Assembly (NCBI RefSeq): GCF_036588685.1
Contig: NC_086384.1
Coordinates: 53,816,001 to 53,880,000, forward strand
DNA from: Mytilus trossulus
Taxonomy: Eukaryota
Direction: 5' to 3'
Length of the DNA stretch: 64,000 nucleotides
Part shown: positions 1-46,888 of the stretch, one piece after another
How positions within the stretch are numbered: the stretch's first letter is position 1
How the letters are laid out: every line of letters starts with the position of its first letter
Made by a program: the position numbers and the translations under genes
The notes under the pieces: model-generated
The model's input: only the letters and a program-made list of their open reading frames with translations
Told to the model about the DNA's origin: nothing
Database searches by the model: none

Positions 1-885
1 TTTGACCATGTAAAGACAGCTTAACCATTTTGACAATGTCAACACAGATTAACCATTAATACTTTGTCAAGACAGCTTGATCATTTTGTCAATGCCATGA
101 CATATTAACCATTTTGACCATGTCAAGACAGATTAACCATTTGACGATGTCAAGACAGATTAACCATTTTGACCATGTCAAGACAGATTAACCATTTGAC
201 TATGTCAAGACAGATTAACCATTTTGACTATGTCAAAACAGATTAACCATTTTGACTATGTCAAAACAGATTAACCATTTTGACCATGTCAAGACAGATT
301 AACCATTTTGTCTATGTCAAGACAGATTAACCATCTTGACTATGTCAAAACAGATTAACCATTTTGACCATGCCATGACAGATTAACCATTTTGACTATG
401 TCAAGACAGATTAACCATCTTGACTATGTCAAAACAGATTAACCATTTTGACCATGTCAAGACAGATTAACCATTTTGTCTATGTCACGACAGCTTAACC
501 ATTTTGACTATGTCAAAACAGATTAACCATTTAGACTATGTCAAGACAGATTAACCATTTTGACTATGTCAAGCAGATTAACCATCTTGACTATGTCAAA
601 ACAGATTAACCATTTTGACCATGTTAAAACAGATTAACCATTTTGACCATGTCAAGATAGATTAACCATTTTGACTATGTCAAAACAGATTAACCATTTT
701 GACCATGTCAAGACAGATTAACCATTTTGACAATGTCAAGACAGATTAACCATTTTGACCATGTCAAGACAGATGAACCATTTTGACTATGTCAAAACAG
801 ATTAACCATTTTGACTATATCAAGACAGAAAAACGATTTTGATTGTGCAAGACAGAATAACCATTTTGATAATGTCAAGGCAGAA
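1..885 (+). repeat. 28-bp tandem satellite (ACCATTTTGACTATGTCAAGACAGATTA), about 31 copies, runs off the window start
   Basis: Period 28 (GATTAA at 241, 269...); unit core matches the SAM exon sequence CATTTTGACTATGTCAAGACAGA. Confidence 0.95.
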
Positions 886-1300: not shown

Positions 1301-24109
<22,809 letters not shown>

Positions 24110-28244: not shown

Positions 28245-28392
28245 TAGTTATCAAAGGTACCAGGATTATAATTTAGTACGCCAGACGCGCGTTTTGTCTA
28301 CATAAGACTCATCATTGACGCTCATATCAAAATATTTATAAAGCCAAACAAGTAAGAAGTTGAAGAGCATTGAGGATCCAAAATTCCAAAAA
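28245..28392 (-). mobile_element. Retrozyme fragment with mutated hammerhead
   Basis: Minus strand GAGCGTCA-ATGATGA-GTCTTATGTAGAC-AAAA-CGCGCGTC-TGGCGT; C3 and G12 core changes. Confidence 0.8.
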
Positions 28393-28844
28393 CTTACCCT
28401 CGTCCCTGTGTGTGGTTTCTGTCGAACACATAATGGAATAAACACACGTAAATTCGAAATAGGGTATGACATATTCAGACAGGGCTGCCAGCTTCACCCT
28501 GACCTGTCAAATTGGCAGCCCACTGTACTGAAATTTGAAACCCATTCAGCAATATTGTGTTTATATATTGAACCAGCAACATGTCAATCAGATGTTGATT
28601 CTTGAATAGAATTCAGGTAAAGTAGTCCATCAGCAGTAATATACCTTTACCGTCAAGCTACCAAAATAAGGCAAAAAAGGAGACCATTTTGGTGCTTAGA
28701 AATACAAGTTTAAGAATTTAGAAAAAGGCTTGAAAATCGAAGAATACATCGACGAAGAAGCACCAATACAGACCCTTGCTTACGGACATCACGTGCAATG
28801 TCGTATTTTAAAATTTGACTTGATAGCAAATATTTTTTTCATGA

Positions 28845-29906
28845 CAGGTCTTCCAAGTGCTCCACGAAACCCCTTTCTAAATTATTAACATTCATTTTAT
28901 CAGCAATCAAAGACGGGCTTCAAAGTTATTGTGTAACTGCCTATTCTAGAGGTGGCGTGAATCAGATGTGGATACTTAAAATTCCAAAGATCTTTTAGAG
29001 TACATACAATCTAACTCTCTTTCATCTTGTAACAGTATTAAAACATTTGACTTTTCTACTCTTTACACAAGTATTCCACATTCCAAACTAAAAGACAAAT
29101 TAAAAGAGTTGGTATTACTTTGCTTCATTAAAAAGAATGGCCAACGTAGATACAAGTATCTCGTCTTAGGGAGGGATAAATCCTATTTTGTAAAGAATCA
29201 TTCTGATTCAAATAAAAAATTCTCTGAAACCGATATTATCAAGATGCTTTATTTCTTGATTGACAACATATTTGTTACGTTCGGAGGACGTGTTTTTCAA
29301 CAGACTGTCGGCATCCCAATGGGAACAAACTGTGCCCCTCTACTCGCTGACTTGCTTCTTTATTATTATGAGGCTGACTTCATGCAGGAAGAAAGATAAG
29401 AAGTTAGCAATATCCTTTAACTCTACTTTCCGCTATATAGATGACGTTCTTTCACTAAGCAATTCAAAATTTGGTGACTATGTGGATCGCATCTATCCCA
29501 TCGAACTGGAGATAAAGGATACTACTGATACAGTTAAGTCGGCTTCATATCTTGACTTACATCTAGAAATTGACAATGAGGGTCGGTTGAAGACAAAACT
29601 TTACGACAAAAGAGATGATTTCAGCTTTCCAATTGTGAACTTTCCATTTCTAAGTAGCAACATTCCAGCAGCACCTGCATACGGGGTATATATCTCCCAA
29701 TTGATACGATATTCCCGTGCTTGCATTTCCTATCATGATTTCTTGATAGAGGGTTACTGCTCACAAGGAAGCTATTAAACAAAGAGTTCCAAATGGTGAA
29801 GTTGAAATCATATCTTCGTAAATTTTACGGACGCCATCACGAGTTGGTTGACCGTTATGGAATAACCGTTTCACAAATGATATCGGATATGTTCCTTACG
29901 TCGTAA
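28845..29906 (+). mobile_element. Penelope-like reverse transcriptase fragment (disrupted)
   Basis: KTFDFSTLYTSIPH, FQQTVGIPMGTNCAPLLADL, FRYIDDVL, YGVYISQLIRY motifs across frameshifted ORFs 29109-29399 and 29260-29778. Confidence 0.85.
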
Positions 29907-30207
29907 CTACAATCCACTTCCCTTTCATGAATTTGACCTACCGAATTAGACTTTTTACCGGATTTGTAATCACATAAGCAACACGACGTGTGCTGCATGT
30001 GGAGCAGGATCTGCTTACCCTTCCGGAGCACCTGAGATCACTCCTAGTTTTTGGTGGGGTTCGTGTTGTTTATTCTTTAGTTTTCTATGTTGTGTCATGT
30101 GTGCTATTGTTTTTCTGTTTGTCTTTTTCATTTTTAGCCATGGCGTTGTCAGTTTGTTTTAGATTTACGAGTTTGACTGTCCCTTTGGTATGTTTGGTCC
30201 CTCCTTT
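29907..30207 (+). mobile_element. 3' non-coding part of the RT element; recurs alone as a non-autonomous repeat (about 42170-42455, 44655-44812, 46620-46875, 49185-49440, 53150-53400; inverted at 34025-34120, 37470-37640, 55390-55860)
   Basis: Shared GTGGAGCAGGATCTGCTTACCCTTCCGGAGCACCTGAG..GGGGTTCGTGTTG..GCCATGGCGTTGTCAG blocks. Confidence 0.7.
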
Positions 30208-30404
30208 GTATTTGTAGAAACTTTTTATGTTTCTTCGATTTATTCTTATAATGGGAATATGAAAGAAATGCATGATACAGACACGCCTACTTTAGCCCCT
30301 TAATAATAATTTATTAAGGGTTTACATATGTAGGTTAAATTCTTGAATAAGATACGAATAGTATATACATCAATCGAAAAAGAAGATCACTCTTGTAAAG
30401 TAAG

Positions 30405-30836
30405 ATACCAATAACATTAACGGTACCAATGTTCCAGTACCAGATGCGCATATCGACAACATATGTCTCTTCAGTGATGCTCGTGGCCAAAATATTTGAA
30501 ATCCAAATCTTAATTAAAAGGTGAAGAGCTATAGACCAAAAGGTCCAAAAAGTATTGCCAAATCCGTGAAAGGAATGGGAGCTTTCAAATTGCATGATTT
30601 ATAACATTATTAAAATATAATAACTTCTAAGATTTTGTAAGGGCAAATTTTAATACCACAAAAAAAATCCTTATTTTCATACCTGTACCAAAGTACTGGC
30701 TACTGGGCTGGTGATACCCTCGGGGACTAACAGTCCATCAGCAGAAGCATCGATCCAGTGGAAGTAATAACATTGACGGTACCAATTTTCCTGCACGAGA
30801 TGCGCATTTCGACAAAACATGTCTCTTCAGTGATGT
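30405..30836 (-). mobile_element. Non-LTR retrozyme, family B (356-bp monomer bounded by two type I hammerheads)
   Basis: Direct repeat with period 356; minus-strand CTGAAGA-GACA..TGTC-GA(A/T)A-TGCGCA-TC at about 30437-30482 and 30793-30836. Confidence 0.85.
30793..30836 (-). ncRNA. Type I hammerhead ribozyme motif (core intact, one stem I mismatch)
   Basis: ACAUCA CUGAAGA GACA-UGUUU-UGUC GAAA U-GCGC-A UC UCGUGC. Confidence 0.78.
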
Positions 30837-32657
30837 TGAAAGGAATATTCAAACTTTTAAACAGCAGCCGACTTAAATCTTGCGTATTAAATTATTACCC
30901 TGATACATTTATGACTATTATCATGTCGTAATGTTCTATTGTATTGTTAGTTTCTGAATTTCATTATCCTGAATGCTTTTTCATTTATGTGTATTGTAGT
31001 CCTGTCATATGATGTTGGCATTTTTGTGTTATATTTAACATTGCAATGAAAGCGGGAGGTATGACTAGCCACAAAATCAGGTCCAAACCATCATGTTTTT
31101 CTTAAAATGTCACAAACAAAATCAAGAAAATGGCATTTGTTATCTTATAGTTCGTTTCTGTGTGTATTACATTGATGTTGTTTTGTGTTGCACTTTAGTA
31201 TTTCTGTTGTTTCGTTGTTTTCCTCTTCTATTTGATGAATTTTCCTAAGTTTCAGTTTGTAAGCCGAATTTTTTTATCTCTCAATCGATATATGACTTCA
31301 GAACAGCGGTATTCTGCTGTTGCTTTATTTACCGGCGGTGATTTCATGCAATCTAACTTGGTCCACATGTAACAAATGAGATGCGTCGGATATTATAAGT
31401 TACATAGTTTGCTAGTGACCCAAAATTTACCGTATTACGTCACTGGCACACTGTGTAACGAATTTATCTTACCGACTATCTTAACGTGTGAAATTTAGGA
31501 TAGTGAGCTATCAAAATAAGGAAGTCTTCAAAACTGTTAGTATCAAGAAACTACTTCCATTGATCATACAAAAAAAGAAGCCAACAATAACAACTTGTTA
31601 GGTTTAAATGTGTTTTATGAATTATCTTCAATTTCTTCGTCTGTTAAACAATGTTAAAGCCTTTAAGATTTTTTTCAGAACCGATTGTTTTTATAAAGGG
31701 ACGTAACATTACTAATAACAGTGTATGAATTAAGCCCCGCCTCCCTACTAACCTAATATGAAATATACACGGTCTTCACGAGGACGCTTTTAACCAATCA
31801 TATTCCTTGAAATGTATAGTAGGTAAGATAAAAATGTATATTGATACATCAGCTATATTATTTCGGGTCGAAACAATCTGTATGAATAGACTGTTACTGT
31901 TTGAACATGTACATGAAGTTAAAGCCGTATACAAAAGACCTAAATTCACCTTTTATTCCGTATTTGAATGTTCTGATATCAACCATAGTCTTGTGTATGT
32001 ACAGGAATACGTGCACTTGCATGAGCCATTATCTATCCGACGTTACTCAAATGATAAGATACAGATACAATGACGCTGCCCACGAGACACCACTCAAAAA
32101 TGTGTAGTGCTTAACCAACCTAAATTGACGGTTTGATTTAAAAAGTACTCATTAAATACATCTATCTTTAATTGTTGTCTGCAGATGTCGTTTGGTTATT
32201 TTATCTTGACGTATCGAACCCAGCATCTCCTTGTATGAACAGTGTATACTGTAAACATTTTTAATTATTGCAGCAACAAGCAAAAAAAAAATAAAATCGG
32301 AAAAAATCAGTAAAGAAAAAAACACAAAAAAACTATTGAAGAAGAAGAAATTCACAGGATATAAATAAGGAAGTCGAGATAAAAGGGAAAAAATCCACCC
32401 CAAAAAATTGAATTAAACGCCTTTATAGTGTATCTTAATAATACTCAATGACTGTTCAACAATGGGTTTCTTCCTTAGAAGATGAAATAACAAGACCAGT
32501 CAATTGTATACAATTTCCTCAAATGTTCTTCCCAGCTTCATAAATATTCATTGTTAATGCGTGTCTTTTGTAGGCCAATCGCATGACAAAACTAGTCGAA
32601 AGTTTAATTTAATGAATAACGCTTATCTAATTGAAAATTGGCAGTATTAAAGATTAT

Positions 32658-32739: not shown

Positions 32740-35700
32740 ATGGATGCATGTACCCTAGTACTAATATCAGGTAAGTTTAGAAAAATAAAGTTTGGCTCTC
32801 TTTTTTTCAGAACTTTATATAAAAAACAACCATGCATGAAAGCTTTAGTAACTTTTTAAACTTTTCTTTTAGATGTTTATTGTTAAACGTTTGAGATTTG
32901 AATTATTTGTTTTACATAGATATAAAAAAAAAAAAGAAGATGTGGTATGATTGCCAATGAGACAACTATCCACAAAAGACCATAATGACACAAACATTAA
33001 GAACTATAGGTCACAATACGGTCTTCAACAATGAGCAAAGCACATACCGCATATTCAGCAATAAAAGGCCCCGATAAGACAATGTAAAAGAATTCAAACG
33101 AGAAAACAACCGGCCTCATTGATGTAAAAAATGAACGAAAAACAAATATGTAACACATAAACAAATGACAACCACTGAATTACAGGCTCCTGACTTGGGA
33201 CAGGCACATACTTAAATAATGTGGCGGGGTTAAACATGTGAGCGGGATCCCAACCCTTCCCTAATATGGGACAGTGGTATAGCAGTACAACATAAGAACG
33301 AACTATAAAAAGCAGTTGAAAAAGGCTTCACTCATCAGATAGACAAAAAATACAAGTGGATAGATGTCTACCTAATCAGTGTTTGTTTGGTTTCCTTATT
33401 TTTGTTATCTTTTGATTTTCGAACACCACACATAAAGGACTTTAACTTTCGCACACATTTACACTTCAAACCTTTTATATTTTTACAAATTATATCAAAC
33501 TTAAAGGTATCGAATACCTGAGTCGCATTGTGCACAACATATCAGAATTTTCGGTGTTTAAATCGCAACAACATTGTTTTTGATAAGGCTTACCAACTGG
33601 TACAATTCGAGCGTCACTGATGGATCTATGGATCTGATGTAGACGATAGTTATCAAAAGTACCAGGATTATAATTTTATACGCCGACGCGCGTTTCGAAA
33701 CTGGCGCCTTGCGTACACAACTACAAATGTTTATGCCTGGAGTCATTGTTGATTTGAAAATAAAGTATTTTTTTATCAAACGGTACGAAGTTAACATGGT
33801 TAATGTGTTATTAATCATTCGTCATTAATATATGCTAATATTTCTAAAGTTAAACCCGCTAGATGAAATTTGGTTTTTCAATTTTGTATCTTAATCGACC
33901 TTTAAACTATTATGCTTCAAGTATCTCTGACGAGTCATTTGAAGACGACAATAACAATCAAAACCAAGAAGTAAACAAAGACTCACAAAACCAAAGGACA
34001 TTCACATCAACAATTATAAACAATAATTAAGAAATAACACAAACTCCACTAAAAACCGGGAGTGAAATCAGATGCTCCGAAAGGGTAAGCATTTCCTACA
34101 CCGTATACGGCATCCGTCGTATCTATATATCTATAGATTATTTTTGTTTACATTGTTGCATGTCATTTGTATATAATTTATTCAACTGTCAACTATCGAT
34201 TCGTTGATATTCATTGATACACACACACCGTACCTTCATAAACTTAACTAATTAAAAATCACATAGGCAATACTTATGTACCAAAGAATTCTCGAAATAA
34301 CATAACTTGCTTTATTTTGTACCTGCATTGGTGGTTTGCTATAAACCTGGATTAGCGTTTAATGTCCCATTGTGACCAGTAAACAACTAAAAAAAACAAC
34401 TCAATAATTCATAAATTTAAACGACACTGTAATTACCTTTGTAATAAGACACATTGGGGATCAGATAAAAATGTCGGATTAAGCAAGTTTGATGAAATAC
34501 TAAGTTTTTTTGTTTTTTTATAAAAACAAGATATATTCTGAAATCCTGAAAATGTGTCGGTTAAAACAGGATGATGGAATAGTTGTCAAAAGTACCAGGA
34601 TTATAATTGAAGACGCCAGACGCGTGTTTCGTCTACATAAGACTCATCAGTGACGCTCAGATCAAAATAGTTATAGAGCCAAAAAAGTAAAAAGTTGAAG
34701 AGCATCGAGGACCAAAAAGTTCCTATAAGTTGTGCCAAATACGGTTAAGGTAATCTTTGTCTGGGATAGGAAAATCCTTAAGTTTTTTTTCGAAGAATTC
34801 AAAGTTTAGTAAAAATTGATCATATAATTGATATTCATGCCAACACCGAAGTGCTGACTACTGAGCTGGTGATACTCTCGTGGACGAAACGTACACCTGC
34901 AGAGGCATTGACCCAGTATTGTAAATAGTTATCAAAGGTACCAGGATTATAATTGAATACGTCAGACGCTTGTCGTCTACATAAGAGTCATCATTGACGC
35001 TCAGATCAAAATAGTTGTGAAGTCAAATAAGTAAAAAGTTGAAAAGCATTGGGGACCAAAAACTCAAAAAAAGTGTGCCAAATACGACTAAGGTAATCTA
35101 TTCCTGGGATTAGAAAATCCCAAGTTATCCTTAGAATCCTAAGAATAATCAGGTGTCAGATTAGGCAGGTTAAACTATACTAGTGATTTCTTTTTTTTCG
35201 TAAAGCGATATTCAGGCCTCCATATTGGTGAAGGCATTTTATGATAATGTTAAAGGAAAAACATCCTTGAATCCAGATTATCATCATAATATGAAATGTT
35301 CTTTTTAGCTAAGTGTTGGAAACAGAGATATATTATTGTAGAGTAACTACGGACGGCTGAAATATATTCAAAATAAAACAAAATACAAACTTAAGTTGAA
35401 ATGCATATTTTTATCATCGCCAAAGTCTTTGAAATTCTCACTGTATACCAACCAATTTATTTTAGTATTACACAAATTTTCGTTGTAGGTTTATCTAACA
35501 TTGCATGGTGCATCCCCGATCTGTTATGGCCATTGAACAGTGAAACATACGCGGCAGAAATCATACATAATAATCAAAATAATTCTGCTGGATGTAATAT
35601 AAAATTTGCACAAGACATGCCACCGACTTTCCTGAACCTTGCTGTTTCAACGGACGACGATCATGTCATTGATGTGAGACTTGCACACAGTATTAGTTTG

Positions 35701-38217
35701 CCTGGAAATGATGATTATACGTTCTCAGGCTGGTTTCAGTTATCAAATCCAGACGGCACTTTGTTTCACTACAAAAGTGATGATCAAAACGGTACATTTT
35801 TAGGAATTAAGGCAACACTGACGTCATCCTCTATTATCACATTGACAAGACTCTTACAGAGTGTCAACGAGAGTGGTGTAGTTGTGAACGACCCCCCTCT
35901 TAGTGCGAATAACTGGTATTATTGGACGTTCAGTGTTGATGCATCGAACGGCAAAATGAAAATATATCAGGATGAAAACAAAATTTTCAGCGAAGATGTT
36001 AATTTCGTCAATGACATAGCTATCGGTCTACCAGGCACACTGCGTATAGGTGGAAGTTTTGACGAATTTGATACAAACTTTAATGGGGATGTGACATGTT
36101 TTGCATATCACTCCGACAGACCTGACCCTCCCAAAATAGAATCAGAAAACAAATGTAAATTTGGACCAGCTGGAGAATCATGTAAGTGTTTTGAAGTTAT
36201 CAAACCTTGCTTCCAAATATAAATTGTTTTTGCATAAATATACTTTTCTAAAAAAATTCTAGTAGTCTATTTGCCAATTAACGAATTTATTCTGAAATTT
36301 CATCCATTTGTCTATCGTAAACTAGTTCCATACAATAAAATTGACTTTTGGTCAAGCAAAGTATGATAGTTGAAAGGGATATATTGTCGTATTAACAATT
36401 TATTAGTGAAAACAACATCTGGAATCAAACGTATTTATTTTAACAACAACTTAGATATAATTAAAAGATTTGAAATACTTAAAGGTTACAAATATTTTAC
36501 TCAGATACAATTGCTCTTTCCTCTAGCTCACATAGTCAATAAAGATGTATTGTCCTTATAGGAAACAACCAAATAAGGGATCTCTCACAGCAGTGTCAGT
36601 AAGAACAATTGGCAATCAGAATATAGGCATTTACATGGATGAAACAATAAAATTGATCAAACAGATCTAATCGCTTATAGAACATTAATCGCCCTTCTGG
36701 TGGAGGAGATTATATGTTTGAATACGACATGACTTCTCTCATGATGTTGGATGTTCCAAGCTATTGGAGAGCTGTTAATTGGTGCTTCTCTATTTAGCAA
36801 TTTACATTAGTAAATACTAATCGCAGTGGTGAATGGTCGTAGTCAAGTAGACTGTGAACCTAGTAGTTTTTGACGATACTCTATTACGCGTTTGGGTCTT
36901 TTTAACTGATTTTGTCACCATATATGTCACGATCTATTTTCATGATCTTTTATATCAGGAAAGATCTAATAATTACAACATCGCGATGATATAAATTTGC
37001 GTTATATTCCTTCTCACGAAAGTCGCAAAATTAAAACTTTCACAAAAATAAGTTGGTTTACAGTGTTTTCATGTAGAATTACGTGTTCTTCTTTGCTATT
37101 TGTTGAAACAAAATGATACTCAACTTAAGGGGTTTCTGTTCAAATTTTGTTGCTTGAAATTAAAAAAAAGTTTTGAATGTTTGCGCTTTTTTTTTATAAT
37201 TGTAAATCCTCCAAAAAGAGGCGACCTATGGAGGATAGCTGCTTTTTTATGGTTACATTTTTGTCTAATCTTGTCTAAGCCAATCAAACAAATTCCTATG
37301 TAAAACTATGGCGATCAAAAGAAAATGGTTACCTTATCACCACCTCTTTAAATTAGATAGAATATACCACCGCCATTGAAAAATACTTCGTTCTTGATTA
37401 AAGTTAGAGGTATGATAAGTGCCATGATTTGGCCTATAGTGAAACTATGTCGGTAGAAGTGAGTTACGAGAGAGGCGGAAGAAACAATAGGGATATTCAA
37501 ATTCATATGCTGAAAACAAACAACGTCATGGCAAAAAAAACCAACATAAAAACTGATAAAAGACAATACAGAAAAAGATGATGATCATGCGCAACACCAA
37601 CCCCACATTAACAGGGATTGATCTCGGGTGCTACGGAAGGGCTCAGGCAAATATAGTAGACATAGACCAGTTATAAATAAATTAAATGTGAATGATTTTG
37701 TAGATTTGTAATACTTTTTGATTTTTGATCTTCTACTTATTTTAATTCACGAATCTAGACATTAAACATACTATTCAAAACTATGGATGAGGGTAACTCG
37801 AAGATAGGATGGTAAGTTAAGCGAAATTTATTCCGACATGATTTGAAAATCTCCTCAGTTGCCTATATCTTACAAAATTGGTACTTAACATCGTTAGTAC
37901 ATTTATAAAAATCGTGAATACATTAAATTAATTCTTTTTTTTCAGATATACCAATATGTCCGAAGAGAAATGTAGGAATATACGCCAATTCAAGTATTGA
38001 TAGTTCTTTACTAAGCACAATTAGTTCGTCTACGGAGTGTTCCGTATTCCAATGTTGCATAGATTGTTTAAATGAGGTTTCCTGTAAATACATACAATAC
38101 GATTTGACCAGTGAGGGATGTCAGACATGTTTTCTGCTGACCATAGGTTCCGGCACCTTCGATTTAGATAACGGAGAGGTTTATGAATTAGTATATTTCA
38201 GCAAAGGAAATTTTTGA
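32740..38217 (+). CDS. Probably secreted LamG/concanavalin A-like plus PAN/apple protein, paralog A; exons 32740-32770, 35489-36181, 37946-38217
   Basis: GT-AG phase-1 junctions give MDACTLVLISGLSNIAWC-IPDLLWPL...YTFSGWF...GTLFHY...NNWYY...GTLRIGG...FNGDVTC (LamG-like), then C-x3-C..C..YIQY..C (PAN-like); collinear with paralog B. Confidence 0.78.
32925..33362. mobile_element. Common interspersed repeat (AAGATGTGGTATGATTGCCAATGAGACAA family; shorter copies at ~4003-4085, 18805-18992, 27590-27818)
   Basis: Shared 5' block and AAACGAGAAAACTAACGGCC block among copies. Confidence 0.7.
34578..35122 (-). mobile_element. Non-LTR retrozyme, family A (about 1.5 copies of a 346-bp monomer) in intron 1 of gene A
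   Basis: GTACCAGGATTATAATTGAA at 34592 and 34938; hammerhead at 34611-34660 and a degenerate one at ~34957-35004. Confidence 0.87.
34611..34660 (-). ncRNA. Type I hammerhead ribozyme with intact catalytic core
   Basis: GAGCGUCA CUGAUGA GUCU-UAUGU-AGAC GAAA C-ACGC-G UC UGGCGU; 6-bp stem I, 4-bp stem II, minimal stem III. Confidence 0.88.
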
Positions 38218-41116: not shown

Positions 41117-44100
41117 ATGGATGCATATACGGTTGTGCTATTATCAGGTATGTACAAAACAAATATTTCTAAAAAGTTTTAACTCGTTTTGCGAGCCTTT
41201 GAATGTTTAAATTTAATGAAACTTTTTATTCTTAATTTAAGAAATTGCATGTTAAAATATGTGTCAATATTTCATGATTTTCTTGATTGGTCATTATGTT
41301 GTCCGCTATCAGTTTTTAGACGTTTTTGAAGAACTTTTACCTTGTTTGTAATATAAATATTTGAGAGATATACTATAATGTTTGAATACCCTTATTTGAG
41401 ATATTTGATATCTATAGGCAATGGCGGATCAGGAAGCGTAGAGGTCGTACGACTCCCTTAATTTGGTCACAAAAAAAGAAGAAATAAATCTTAATATCTT
41501 GTTTCTAATTGTGACATCAAACTACAAATACTATGTTTCCTTAATATGTTTACTTACTACCGCTTAAAAAAAAACTGTTAATCTGGTCACTATTGTTTAT
41601 TGTGACAAAGAAGGCTTGTATAAACAAAGATATTATTAATTTTTCAAAATCGTTTATTTGTTAAGACTTTTGCAATTGCTTTAAGCGCCTCTGGTGAGTC
41701 TTATCTAGTCATAATGCGCCGTCTGACGTAAGCACGTTATAAGCCTGACATACTAAATAGCTTTTTTATAAGATCGAAATGACTCTTTTATACTGTAGAT
41801 TCATTATTATTCGTCGAATACAATTTTTTCGGTGAATTCTTGGAGACATGTGAATCACAAATATCAATGTTAAAATTTTCTACAAATATGTTTGCAGATT
41901 TTGCCTACCCCGCGAGATAAAATATCCACGAAAATGCAATTTTCCATCATTCCAAGAAAATTACAACCACGAGAAAAAATCAAACCAAATTATTTCATTA
42001 TTTTAAAGTACAACACTATACAGATAATTTTTCTGAATTCCTAAGAGAGGTAAATAATCTATACTGAATAAATGAAAACGCAACCCATACCTGTTTGTTC
42101 ATGTCATAAAAAATAAAACTGACGGATTTTGACTGGAAAATTAACCAACTGTTCTAACACTTCGTGACTTTTATTGTTCACCTACCTAATTATACTATTT
42201 ACCGGGCTCGTAATAACATAAACAAAACGACGGGTGCCACATGTGGAGCAGGATCTGATTACCTTCAGGAGTACCTGAGATCACACCGCTTTTTGTCGGG
42301 GTTCGTGTTGCTAAGTCTTTGTTTTGGTATACTATATTATTGTGTCATGTATACTATTGTTTGTCTGTTTTTATTTTTCATTTTTAGTCATGGCGTTGTC
42401 AGTTTATTTCCAATCTATGAGTTTGATAGTCCCTCTGGCATCTTTCTCCCCTGTTTTAACATATTTGTATGCCAAAACTTTGCAGCAATTTTTTTTTTAC
42501 ATTGCCAATCATTTTCAAGGTTCAATTTGAAGATGTTCATGTGTCCATATCTAAAAAAATATAAAGGAGACCTTCTTTACTAATATACTCGGAAGTATCC
42601 TTAAGGAGGTTTACTACCCAATTTCAAAATAAATAGCTTCCATAACACTAGTATATATTGAAAGGGGATTAATTAAGGAATAAAAAAAGCAAATATAATT
42701 GAAATCAATTGACAATGAGATGACAGAAACGAAAACGATAAAATAGATTAACAGGATACAAAACACAAAATAATAGTCTAAAGACTAAGCAACACAATTC
42801 CCCACCAAAATCTGCCATTTTACCAATATCTACGTGTTTCGAACGACAAAATAACAAACAAACATTTCAAAACAAAAAAATACAGCATAAATTAAAGCTG
42901 AATCAAAGAATATAATAAGATAATTGCAAATCATATTTTTTATCGCATATATTCGCACTTTAGGATGTTTTGTCGTTGGAAGCTGTACACTCGAACTACT
43001 ATGGCCATTGAATAATGTTACATACACGTCAGAAATCAAACTGAATTCCCAGAATCAAGATCGAGCAGCTGGATGCAATATGAAATTCGCACAAGATATG
43101 CCACCTAATTTCCAAAATCTTGCAGTTTCTACTGATAATAATCACTGGATTGATATTAGAATTGAAGACAATATTTCTTTTCAAAATAAAGACTATATGT
43201 TCTCAGGCTGGTTTAAGACATATAATCCAAATGGTGCTTTGATTCACTACAAAAGTGATGATACAACAGGACAATTTCTTGAACTAAAGGCAATGCTGAA
43301 TAATTCAAATATCATATTCACGAGAAAATTAAAAACTGCCAACGAAACTGGATCCATAGGCGTCACATTGAGCCCGAATAGCTGGAATTATTTGGCATTT
43401 GGCATCGATATAAGCAACGGTAAAATACAAATTTGTTATGATGGAACCAATATATATGACGGAGCCGACAGTTTTGTGGACATAGACATGAAGCTACCAG
43501 GTACATTGCGCATAGGCAGAAGTTTTGATGACGTTGATCCAACCTTTGATGGAGATGTGACCTGCGTTGCATTGCATAACGATAAAGGAGCTCCTTTATC
43601 GGATTCAGAGATCGAATGTAAGAACACTATCCCTGACGAATCATGTAAGTTGTTTATAAATATCGAAAATAACCACCATCTCGTTCTTATTATATAGTAT
43701 ACTGTTAGATAAAATCCATTTATATTATGTCAAGATTCTAAATATGTAATGGCTAATAGTATAACTGGCGAAAAATTTCCTAATAATTTGTAGCTTCAAT
43801 CTACCAAACACAGTGTTATACTGATGTTCAAAAGTCATTAATATATTAAGGAAAAACAAATTCTGGTTACAAATTAAAACCGAGGGATACATTTGAACTA
43901 TAGTGTAAGAGGTAAAGAACGGAACAGAAACATAAAACTGCAACAAATAACCAAAGTCTGTTATGGAACAGAATATAGTTATTCTCTCGAGGAGTTAGGG
44001 CCTATCATTTAAAATATAAACATTTATTTAAGTATGTTTGATTGACAATTTGGCCCTTAATTCTTTTCATTTACAGAACGATTAATTTCTATCATGTATT

Positions 44101-44385
44101 TTGAAAATTTCTAAATCAAACTATTGATTTTCAGATAAACCAATATGTCCGGACAGGAATGTAGGAACATACACAAGTATCAATAACGGGATGTCTAACC
44201 TACGTACGATCAGTACGAGTACTGTGTGCTCCGTGTTCCAATGTGGTATCGTTTGTCTAAAGCTGACATCGTGTAAATACATACAGTATAATCTGACCAC
44301 TGAAGGTTGTAACACATGTTATTTGCTGACCATTGGTTCTGGTAGCTTCGATTTGAATAACGGAGAGGTTTTTGAATTGGGATAA
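41117..44385 (+). CDS. Probably secreted LamG/concanavalin A-like plus PAN/apple protein, paralog B; exons 41117-41147, 42964-43644, 44135-44385
   Basis: MDAYTVVLLSGCFVVGSC-TLELLWPL...YMFSGWF...GTLRIGR...FDGDVTC, then ICPDRNVG...CSVFQCGIVCLKLTSCKYIQYNL..C..CYLL; same intron phases as paralog A. Confidence 0.8.
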
Positions 44386-46888
44386 TGAAGCAACTAAACA
44401 TTTGATCTCAAAACTTGTTGTATATGATGTTTAACAGACGGACACATATTTGCATTCCACAAATATATTTGCTTTCACCATATGATAATAGTCATACGTC
44501 ACAACTGTTTCAAACCATGAAGGAGTATAGCCAGGAACCCCAATAAATTGCTCTGTAAAGGCTTTTTTAAAACTTTGACTGTTGAATTACAAAATGTATC
44601 ATTTTTGAAAGTATATGTAGAAAAATAAGTGTCTGCCTCATACATGTGTAGATTATGGTGGGGTTCGTGTTGTTTATTCTTTAGTTTTCTATGTTGTGTC
44701 ATGTGTACTATTGTTTTTCTGTTTGTCTTTTTCATTTTTAGCCATGGCGTTGTCAGTTTGTTTTAGATTTAAGAGTTTGGCTGTCCCTTTGGTATCTTTC
44801 GTCCCTCTTTTATAAAGATATTAAAGGCTACAGTAGTATACCGCTGTTCAAAAGTCATGTATCGATTACGAGAGAAAAGAAAGCCTAAAACAGGTAGAGA
44901 TTTTGTTTATTTTTTTCTAGAAATTCAACTATTTCGATCTTATTTGAATTTATATGTGGAGCAGTAAAAGAGAGTGAATTAAGGCAACAGTAGTATACAG
45001 CTGTTCCAAAGTCATAAAACACTTTGTGGGCGAAGGATGACGAAACAGTTAACGGTTATTTTTGATCAGAAAATTTACATGAATTTCACCAAATAATACA
45101 CAAAATCCCGTATTCTTGTGATGTCATACATACACGACAAATATTCTGTAACCGAAACAATTGGATATTCTAACCTATGTTTTCATATAATTTTCAACAC
45201 ATTATCGCAATTGCAAAAAAAAAGTTTTATGGCCTTTGTTGCGAGTTGGTTAACTGTCACCTTTTAGCATAAAGTAATAGCGTCTATTTTTTTAGCATGA
45301 AGTAATAGCGTCTAAAAATGTTATCTATTTATAAATTCCTGATTTTAAAATCTTCAGACTTGAACGTTCAAATGATGATACACCAATAATACCGCTTTGA
45401 GCCGATTAAATTCATGAAGTGTTATTTTCATTTAGGTGTAATCATAACCATTATTCTTGATCTATATTGAGGTTTGTTGATTTTTATTCACTATATATTT
45501 CAACTATACGCTATTAAACATACATACTAATTTAGCACTCCCGTACAATGGCACTCAAAAAAGCGGAAAAAAATATATGTACAAAAATATTTGGGCACCA
45601 GCAACAATACCATTTATACCAAAATACAGCAAATACATAATAATTATATGTATGGCAAATTTATTTGACAGAAGTATGTTTCATACTTGTACAACAATAT
45701 TCATGTTCATACTATAACTATGGCTATATTGGTCATGCTATTTTATTTTTCATATTCTCATTTGTAGAATAGACTATCCATGTTAATACTAGTATATGTT
45801 TATATTCTTGTCATGATACTTACAAAAATAAATATTGTCGTAAAAATGAAAACAACACGTTATTATAATAATGAGTCTGAAGAGCTTTTCTTGGATTTAC
45901 CTTCACAAAATGCTTAAAATCGATTGTCTAATTGCCAAGAATGTATAAAAACTACAAAGGTTGAGCTATATGACTGCAAGAAGACAGAAGACAGAAAATA
46001 GCAAAATTCATCTTTTGTCTAATTTGCTTGAGGGTATTGAAACCAAAGTTTCTTTAAAATTTCAAAGGAGTAGACCCAGTTATACTCCTTTTTGGCCCCA
46101 ACATATAGCAATTTTATATAATAATAAAAATGTAAACTTTAAGCTGTTTATTTGAAAGTATAATACTTCTATTACATAAATATGGGCTGTGTTTGACAAT
46201 TCAATATTCAAATGTAATTTGTATTTTATGATAATACTTATTTATATAAAGGTTGAGAACACGGATGGGGCCATTTTCACTTTTCCATAAACAAAACCAT
46301 CTGAAAAGTGACATATTATGGCATAGTTGATAGATTGTTTAAGATTAAAGCTTGAATTCGGCAGTATTGATGACTAAATCAGTTCAATTTTTTCCAAAAA
46401 CTAGTTAAGTGGACTGGTGTAGACACTTAAGTGTTTAAAAAATTTCCAAAATCTTTCATCATATGAACTTGAAGTATGAGGACCAAATTGACCCTTACCA
46501 GACCTACTCTTGTTTAAACGAGTAATTTAAGAAAGTTTTGTTATAAATCATGCTAGTTCAGAAGTACTGACATCTGATCTTTTCAATTTCGCACATTATT
46601 TGACCCTATTAACTTTTATTCAAGCGTCAGTCATATCACGAGTTGTTTGACCGGTATGACATATTGCTTTCGTTTTATATGTATATGATGATGTATATGT
46701 TCCAATTGTCGTAACATCAGTCTCATCCCCTTTCATCCTAATAGGACATCTCTGGATAAGAATTATCATCAAATTTGCACTAACATGAACAACACGTTGG
46801 AGTAAGATTGGCTTACCCTTATAATGCACCCGATATTACCCCGATGTTAGTGGGATTCGTGATGCTCAGGGCTTAGTTTTTATGTTGC

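Follow-up and report, generated by a model that had tools for sequence, protein, structure and literature searches.

A predicted mussel intron holds, in antisense orientation, a hammerhead ribozyme with a complete core; the question is whether it marks a working retrozyme or the remains of one, and how it came to be there. The window, i.e. the whole stretch of Mytilus trossulus DNA that was analysed, is 64,000 nucleotides long. An earlier reading, made from the letters only (the sequence-only reading), had described positions 34578–35122 as one 346-nt monomer of a hammerhead retrozyme with an intact ribozyme. In the interpretation favoured here, to which we assign a probability of about 85%, the insert is an old, 5′-truncated, partly tandem copy of a high-copy mussel repeat, likely the retrozyme described in Mytilus, which was likely pasted into the intron by a reverse transcriptase and is likely decaying without function. 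The locus is organised as follows:

32740–32770, plus strand: coding exon 1 of the host gene (MDACTLVLIS, a likely signal peptide start), with donor GTAAGT; a paralogous exon is at 41117.
32771–35488, plus strand: predicted intron 1 (2.7 kb; GT..AG and an open spliced frame), which holds the insertion in antisense.
34578–35122, minus strand: retrozyme insertion of ~1.57 units (5′-truncated 158-bp partial unit, full 346-bp unit and 41-bp 3′ end).
34578–34618, minus strand: 41-nt 3′ end past the cut site, ending in ...AACTATT, an end point common to other insertions.
34613–34656, minus strand: type I hammerhead with complete core, predicted cut 34619/34618 and loop III ACGC (motif reading and Rfam).
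34619–34964, minus strand: 346-nt unit between the two cut positions, 37% GC.
34959–35000, minus strand: broken upstream hammerhead, cut-equivalent 34965 (sequence comparison).
35489–36181, plus strand: exon 2, a Laminin_G_3 / concanavalin A-like domain (Pfam PF13385, E 8.8e-10).
~37946–38217, plus strand: PAN-like exon (PAN_1, E 0.0014, below its cut-off).

Instead of a single monomer, the insert is 545 bp long (41, 346 and 158 bp). Its direct repeat spans only ~200 bp, and the 146 bp between the copies are also unit sequence, by homology to locus L003, one of ten metagenome loci (L001–L010) collected by hammerhead core pattern. L003 is a tandem array of 2.4 units; its 355-nt unit and the 346-nt unit are identical at 305 of 341 aligned sites, and the whole insert is colinear with it at 83%. 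There is no stop-free frame of at least 90 amino acids in the insert. No target-site duplication above chance is present, the 78-nt flanks aligning no better than 585 of 2982 random pairs; for retrozymes, duplications of more than 4 bp are described "when present", that is, as optional (PMC7229834).

The downstream hammerhead runs on the minus strand from 34656 to 34613. Helix I (GCGUCA/UGGCGU) has six base pairs, including two G-U pairs, and is followed by the core CUGAUGA (34650–34644), a helix II of three pairs (GUC/GAC) around UUAUGUA, the GAAA (34630–34627) and a helix III of two pairs (A-U and C-G), closing the tetraloop ACGC at 34625–34622. The cut triplet is GUC with C17 at 34619, and the predicted cut is therefore between 34619 and 34618, where the sequence-only reading had placed it. 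The core CUGANGA, the GAAA and the NUH triplet (here CUGAUGA, GAAA and GUC) are those of a type I hammerhead, and its helices I (at the open end), II and III are all pairable, with 6+3+2 pairs. The label "minimal" that had been attached to it does not fit: helix III has two base pairs and a tetraloop, so in the wording of PMC7229834 it is not of the minimal Penelope-like element (PLE) type. A search with the Rfam Hammerhead_1 model (RF00163), proposed earlier as a check, gives a full-length match (model 1–45 of 45, 29.3 bits) including the core, GAAA and GUC, with an E-value of 1.9e-4 in 3 kb. When the whole window is scanned, its E-value is 0.004 and those of the other 12 of 13 matches are at least 0.7. 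The match nevertheless falls short of the gathering score of 34, at which there are no matches, and it differs from the model in having ACGC instead of GCGC as loop III. Homologous copies peak at 33.3 bits, which leaves the whole family under the gathering score.

The active fold of this hammerhead is calculated at -3.4 kcal/mol, the same as in L005 and L006, with a predicted minimum of -8.9 kcal/mol; the active fold is not the minimum in any of eight evaluated copies, GCGC copies included. Compared with shuffled sequences, the local hammerhead folds show no unusual stability (z 1.06 and 0.55). Slow cleavage as a monomer is predicted, and is plausible because monomeric cleavage is reported for most hammerheads of invertebrate retrozymes (PMC7761336). 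The non-palindromic loop III, to which attention had been drawn, is present letter for letter, but it is no special feature. A palindromic eight-mer, ACGCGCGU, is found at this place in six of nine homologous loci; ACGC recurs in one (L009), while L007 and L010 contain other changes. In two runs of contigs, of uncertain RNA or DNA origin, the letter of GCGC makes up 92% and 96% of the depth at 34625. ACGC is a minority variant; the change is a CpG-to-CpA transition, of the type that methylation decay would leave, and the monomer fold is the same with either loop.

That the insert is a decayed copy of a known kind, of the non-LTR retrozyme class, is supported by comparison of sequences, because nine of the ten metagenome loci are homologous to its unit, L003 is tandem and the host is a mytilid; the class named by the sequence-only reading can be retained. 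As in other non-LTR retrozymes, the hammerhead lies in a head-to-tail repeat of 150–450 bp with low GC content (346 bp and 37% GC, tandem in L003), and there are many dispersed copies without a coding frame, namely the nine loci and further pieces of the same family (family 1) in the window, at 28245, 33512–33697, 33877, 30878, 41676, 51352 and 58632. At 34625, 82–83 distinct contigs provide coverage in the two runs, against a depth of ~2 on exon 2, figures that are not copy numbers. Four of the loci (L001, L002, L004 and L010) form a subfamily with the same hammerhead and another 3′ tail (...TATCTATGATGAGTTT), which stops about as far from the cut site as in the other copies. The exception among the ten, L008, is non-homologous: it contains a type III-like hammerhead (695–749, minus strand; Hammerhead_3, 43.9 bits) on a 30-kb metagenome contig. 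Core-pattern scans of viral contigs and of prokaryote genomes gave no matches. A second family is represented in the window by a copy at 30410–30835 (minus strand), with core CUGAAGA, helix II GACA/UGUC and a 356-bp unit, 68% like family 1. Its upstream hammerhead keeps the core, GAAA and AUC, with a C-C mismatch in helix I, and its downstream hammerhead has GAUA; the copy has no Rfam match at E ≤ 1.

In M. galloprovincialis, ~5000 type I hammerheads in two families of 350–390-bp repeats have been described; the mussel hammerhead cleaves at ~0.1/min and the retrozymes are expressed as abundant circles (PMC7229834). The units found here (346, 355 and 356) and their two families are close to this description, with the 346-bp unit slightly under the quoted range. 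The likeness to these retrozymes (Cervera and de la Pena 2020, PMC7229834) includes the mytilid host, the ~350-nt unit of low GC content, the type I hammerhead with short helix III, the two related families, the tandem copies and the co-occurrence with PLEs. In contrast to them, the copy described here is dispersed, measures 1.57 units and has only one complete hammerhead, with loop ACGC. The insert likely belongs to the published Mytilus retrozyme, as judged on these features and not by direct sequence comparison with the deposited circles (GenBank MN642551–MN642576); the hammerhead motif, when sought in the texts of the papers, gave no match in published text. Vertebrate non-LTR retrozymes are likewise present as scattered monomers or partial copies, often intronic and mostly inactive (bioRxiv 10.64898/2026.07.22.740005). 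That survey, in its available part, is without molluscs, and, unlike there, no pseudo-LTR (pLTR) homologue was found for the mussel family.

The insertion is antisense within the predicted intron 32771–35488 of a plus-strand gene, as had been claimed. Exon 1 is predicted to splice in frame to exon 2, giving a LamG reading frame, and the ATG exon and its donor are retained in the paralogue, at 41117. Nine of the 13 homologues of exon 2 are named in Mytilus (50–59% identity; closest homologue 93%); exon 1 has no cover in the two contig runs. The gene at 32740–38217 and that at 41117–44393 (both plus strand) form a tandem pair of three-exon genes, likely for secreted proteins with LamG/concanavalin A-like and PAN domains, and this family has several uncharacterised members in Mytilus.

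The two overlapping units of the insert, A and B, differ at 30 of 200 sites. Compared with four outside units, they contain 11 and 13 private changes in 198 sites; three letters are common to A and B and absent from the four outside units, which fits a single template. These comparisons fit an origin of both units in a single round of copying, after which each decayed by ~6%. At 6% divergence, the probability that a hammerhead is still intact is 0.21–0.40 per site (for 15–25 constrained sites), and the core, GAAA and UH are kept at two of nine hammerhead positions in the window, so that one survivor is expected without need for selection. A quite unlikely alternative is that selection preserved the downstream hammerhead, for instance to cut an antisense transcript, or favoured the antisense orientation as a protection of the pre-mRNA. 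The two introns contain three sense hammerhead remnants, all of them broken, and the antisense one at 34613–34656 is intact, as selection might leave them, and Xenopus retrozymes are somewhat depleted in introns (bioRxiv 10.64898/2026.07.22.740005). However, zero of three intact sense cores against one of two antisense gives a Fisher p of 0.4, antisense and intergenic copies are mostly broken too, and the surviving hammerhead itself bears private changes in the helix I extensions and loop III. Moreover, 42–44% of Xenopus copies are intronic, and most are inactive, which makes an intronic, inactive mussel copy ordinary (bioRxiv 10.64898/2026.07.22.740005). Slow intronic ribozymes are reported to have no effect on splicing (Fong 2009 as cited in PMC10274809). 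With 0.1/min, the half-life would be ~7 min, and with 870 nt to exon 2 this suggests that a sense copy would do little harm, rarely cutting before the exon is made. Of the earlier statement that the orientation spares the host pre-mRNA, the geometrical part is true: the pre-mRNA holds only the reverse complement, so the host transcript is not cleaved in cis. There is no sign of selection on antisense orientation, and decay by chance is preferred to account for the one intact hammerhead.

Formation of a circle requires the 5′ end to be made by the upstream cut and the 3′ end by the downstream cut. The degenerate partner noticed in the sequence-only reading is indeed present, with its cut-equivalent at 34965, 346 bp from the downstream cut, and its lesions affect the core: C3 is changed to A, a G at the base of helix II is changed to C and two nucleotides of the GAAA are lost. 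Two consecutive complete hammerheads are thus not found in 34578–35122, since the upstream one is broken, and only repeats with two complete ones count as active in the vertebrate survey (bioRxiv 10.64898/2026.07.22.740005). With the upstream ribozyme broken, only the 3′ end of a monomer could be cut, and, as far as can be read from these lesions, the copy is likely unable to release a unit-length monomer or circle; the ~346-nt circle expected earlier from this locus is unsupported. Compared with shuffled sequences, the circle also folds no better (z -0.65 for the 346-nt unit, -0.61 for the L003 unit), which does not match the published description of such circles as "highly self-paired". It is less probable still than selection that the locus is an active retrozyme, in which transcripts of the minus strand would yield a 346-nt circle, the broken upstream site being cleaved either in trans or by way of a dimeric hammerhead. 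In its favour are the complete downstream core and the dimeric cleavage known from axolotl retrozymes (PMC7229834), but the upstream site is without C3, the helix II base pair and the GAAA, and ACGC weakens the dimeric helix III to -8.1 kcal/mol, compared with -13.3 kcal/mol for GCGC (-8.4 kcal/mol with a GCGC partner). In vitro, eight of nine Xenopus genomic dimers tested did not cleave and one did (bioRxiv 10.64898/2026.07.22.740005).

How a decayed copy of this kind was inserted can be approached from its ends. The 3′ end was scored, by alignment to L003 as the reference, in those family-1 copies that continue beyond the cut site and stop short of the limit of their record. In the window, these ends are at +41 past the cut (34578), +39 (28245), +41 (58632), +40 (33646, an inversion junction) and +41 (30919), and in the metagenome loci at +41 (L005), +44 (L006) and +9 (L007). 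Seven of the eight scorable insertions end at +39 to +44, with L007 as the exception; the chance of this is ~3e-8 on a uniform 355-nt null, with the limitation that selecting loci by hammerhead pattern favours nearby ends. Set aside from the count were L001, L002, L004 and L010 (variant tail), L009 (which ends with its record) and L003 itself, as well as the old fragments at 33512, 33877 and 51352, whose ends lie short of the site or elsewhere, and the piece at 41676, which missed the E cut-off. The four loci with the variant tail align to L003 up to +26 to +34 and resemble each other to ~+42 to +46. The family-2 copy ends at the homologous 3′ position. The 5′ ends, on the other hand, vary (-154, -108, -38 and -178). 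A sense-strand copy at 33512–33697, in the same intron as the insert, has an in-place inversion of its final ~52 nt (-12 to +40), which splits the hammerhead. The piece at 30878–30919 (plus strand) contains 42 bp of family 1, just from the cut site to +41, and faces the family-2 copy head to head. This single case may have been made by run-off copying of self-cleaved linear RNA, or may be an inverted 5′ piece of the PLE type.

Because self-cleavage leaves the monomer with its 3′ end at the cut site, a start at +41 requires internal priming, and copies of more than one unit imply a circle or an uncut multimer as template. The 3′ ends at +39 to +44 point to Penelope-type internal priming on retrozyme RNA. 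Tentatively, and at somewhat less than even odds, we propose that the fixed 3′ end ~40 nt past the cut, at ...ATT and with a counterpart at the homologous position in family 2, is the internal priming site of a PLE, copies of more than a unit being made from the circle and the ~41-nt run-off from linear RNA. A Penelope-like reverse transcriptase has been shown to initiate internally, downstream of the hammerhead, with nicking at ATT (PMC11167929), and 5′ truncation, partial tandems and tails are marks of PLEs (PMC8557442). The insert resembles PLE copies (Poseidon PAc, PMC11167929; Naiad, PMC8557442) in its 5′ truncation, partial tandem and defined 3′ end downstream of the hammerhead, and in PAc, as proposed for the retrozyme, reverse transcription begins inside the RNA (PMC11167929). 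It differs in having no reverse transcriptase or endonuclease frame, and in its single end point, as opposed to two start sites bounding a 30–40-bp tail (PMC11167929). Naiads are without canonical hammerheads, unlike the retrozyme (PMC8557442). PLEs have been proposed only as candidate mobilisers of retrozymes (PMC7229834, available part), and the mechanism of mobilisation is listed as unresolved (bioRxiv 10.64898/2026.07.22.740005). No description of a fixed 3′ end of retrozyme insertions was found in the literature, where PMC7229834 (Figs S4, S5 and S9) and the bioRxiv supplements may bear on it.

The window also contains a broken reverse transcriptase:

~28850–30210, plus strand: PLE-type reverse transcriptase remnant, 5′-truncated and frameshifted (RVT_1, E 4.6e-4).

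By eye, the remnant looks Naiad-like, with a long RT3–RT4 region and without an endonuclease downstream. Its 3′ region is also represented by pieces at 33987, 42177, 44649, 49268 and 53095. A PLE reverse transcriptase, possibly of a hammerhead-less Naiad, is a candidate for the enzyme that mobilised the retrozyme; the remnant (28401–30400) itself has no sequence link with the retrozyme (best E 0.16). The reverse transcriptase and GIY-YIG frame of an autonomous PLE is absent from 34578–35122, which has no such ORF. An origin of the insert as a pseudo-LTR end left behind by an autonomous PLE with a hammerhead, not as a copy of a retrozyme circle, is about as improbable as an active locus: the 5′ truncation, partial tandem and fixed end form a PLE-type architecture (PMC8557442) and Xenopus retrozymes are homologous to PLE pLTRs (bioRxiv 10.64898/2026.07.22.740005), but the L003 unit repeats head to tail with no ORF between, there is no similarity to the remnant, and PLE hammerheads are described as minimal, without helix III (PMC7761336).

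Copying from retrozyme RNA, the preferred reading, would have proceeded as follows. Tandem copies elsewhere would be transcribed, self-cleaved and ligated into ~350-nt circles, as published for the family and not for this locus. Reverse transcription by a Penelope-like enzyme would then have started ~41 nt beyond the cut and covered ~1.57 turns of one template, with a fixed 3′ end, a ragged 5′ end and an incomplete tandem as the outcome. Private changes (11 and 13 in 198 sites) have since broken the upstream hammerhead and altered loop III in its downstream counterpart. As a monomer, the remaining hammerhead is predicted to be capable of slow cutting, provided that the minus strand is transcribed; with no working upstream cut, neither unit-length monomer nor circle would be expected, and the pre-mRNA holds only the inactive reverse complement. 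The locus itself is of little weight, as it likely represents one among thousands of copies of a published element and is probably inert; the insert is of use as a relic of how such elements are mobilised. A 3′ end shared in this way across the genome would define an RNA priming site for a mussel PLE reverse transcriptase, and the proposed internal priming, if true, would be genomic evidence that a PLE reverse transcriptase copies retrozyme circles.

Several other elements were considered. A hammerhead on the opposite strand (~34866–34900, CTGGTGA...GAAAC) was rejected: its core is imperfect, the homologous loop differs in family 2 and Rfam finds no plus-strand hammerhead. A tRNA-like Pol III promoter past the cut site, sought by eye with A- and B-box consensus sequences, was discarded as well, the unit being full of T runs; a sigma-70 promoter scan gave chance-level results, with a consensus irrelevant to an animal. 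The 53-bp minisatellite at 19622–21278 has CTGATGAG...GGAAA in its unit but no helix II pairing, and was not retained as a hammerhead; other minisatellites are located at 1–1300 and 6534–10237. A ~445-bp repeat at 32930–33375, very high-copy and non-coding, is also present in L004 and at 2101, 18105 and 61856, and contains a Twister-P1-like motif at 33166–33236 (minus strand; UAACCCCGCC...GUCCCAAG...GUAA). The motif is not significant (16.6–17.1 bits, E 0.38–4.7, gathering score 67.2) and is absent from the whole-window scan; a literature search for twister ribozymes in Mytilus gave only the two retrozyme papers. At 10204–10494 and 22232–24106 (plus strand), exons of a tyrosine kinase gene are present, with a long proline-rich exon and a UBA-like end, which we take to resemble Ack1/TNK2.
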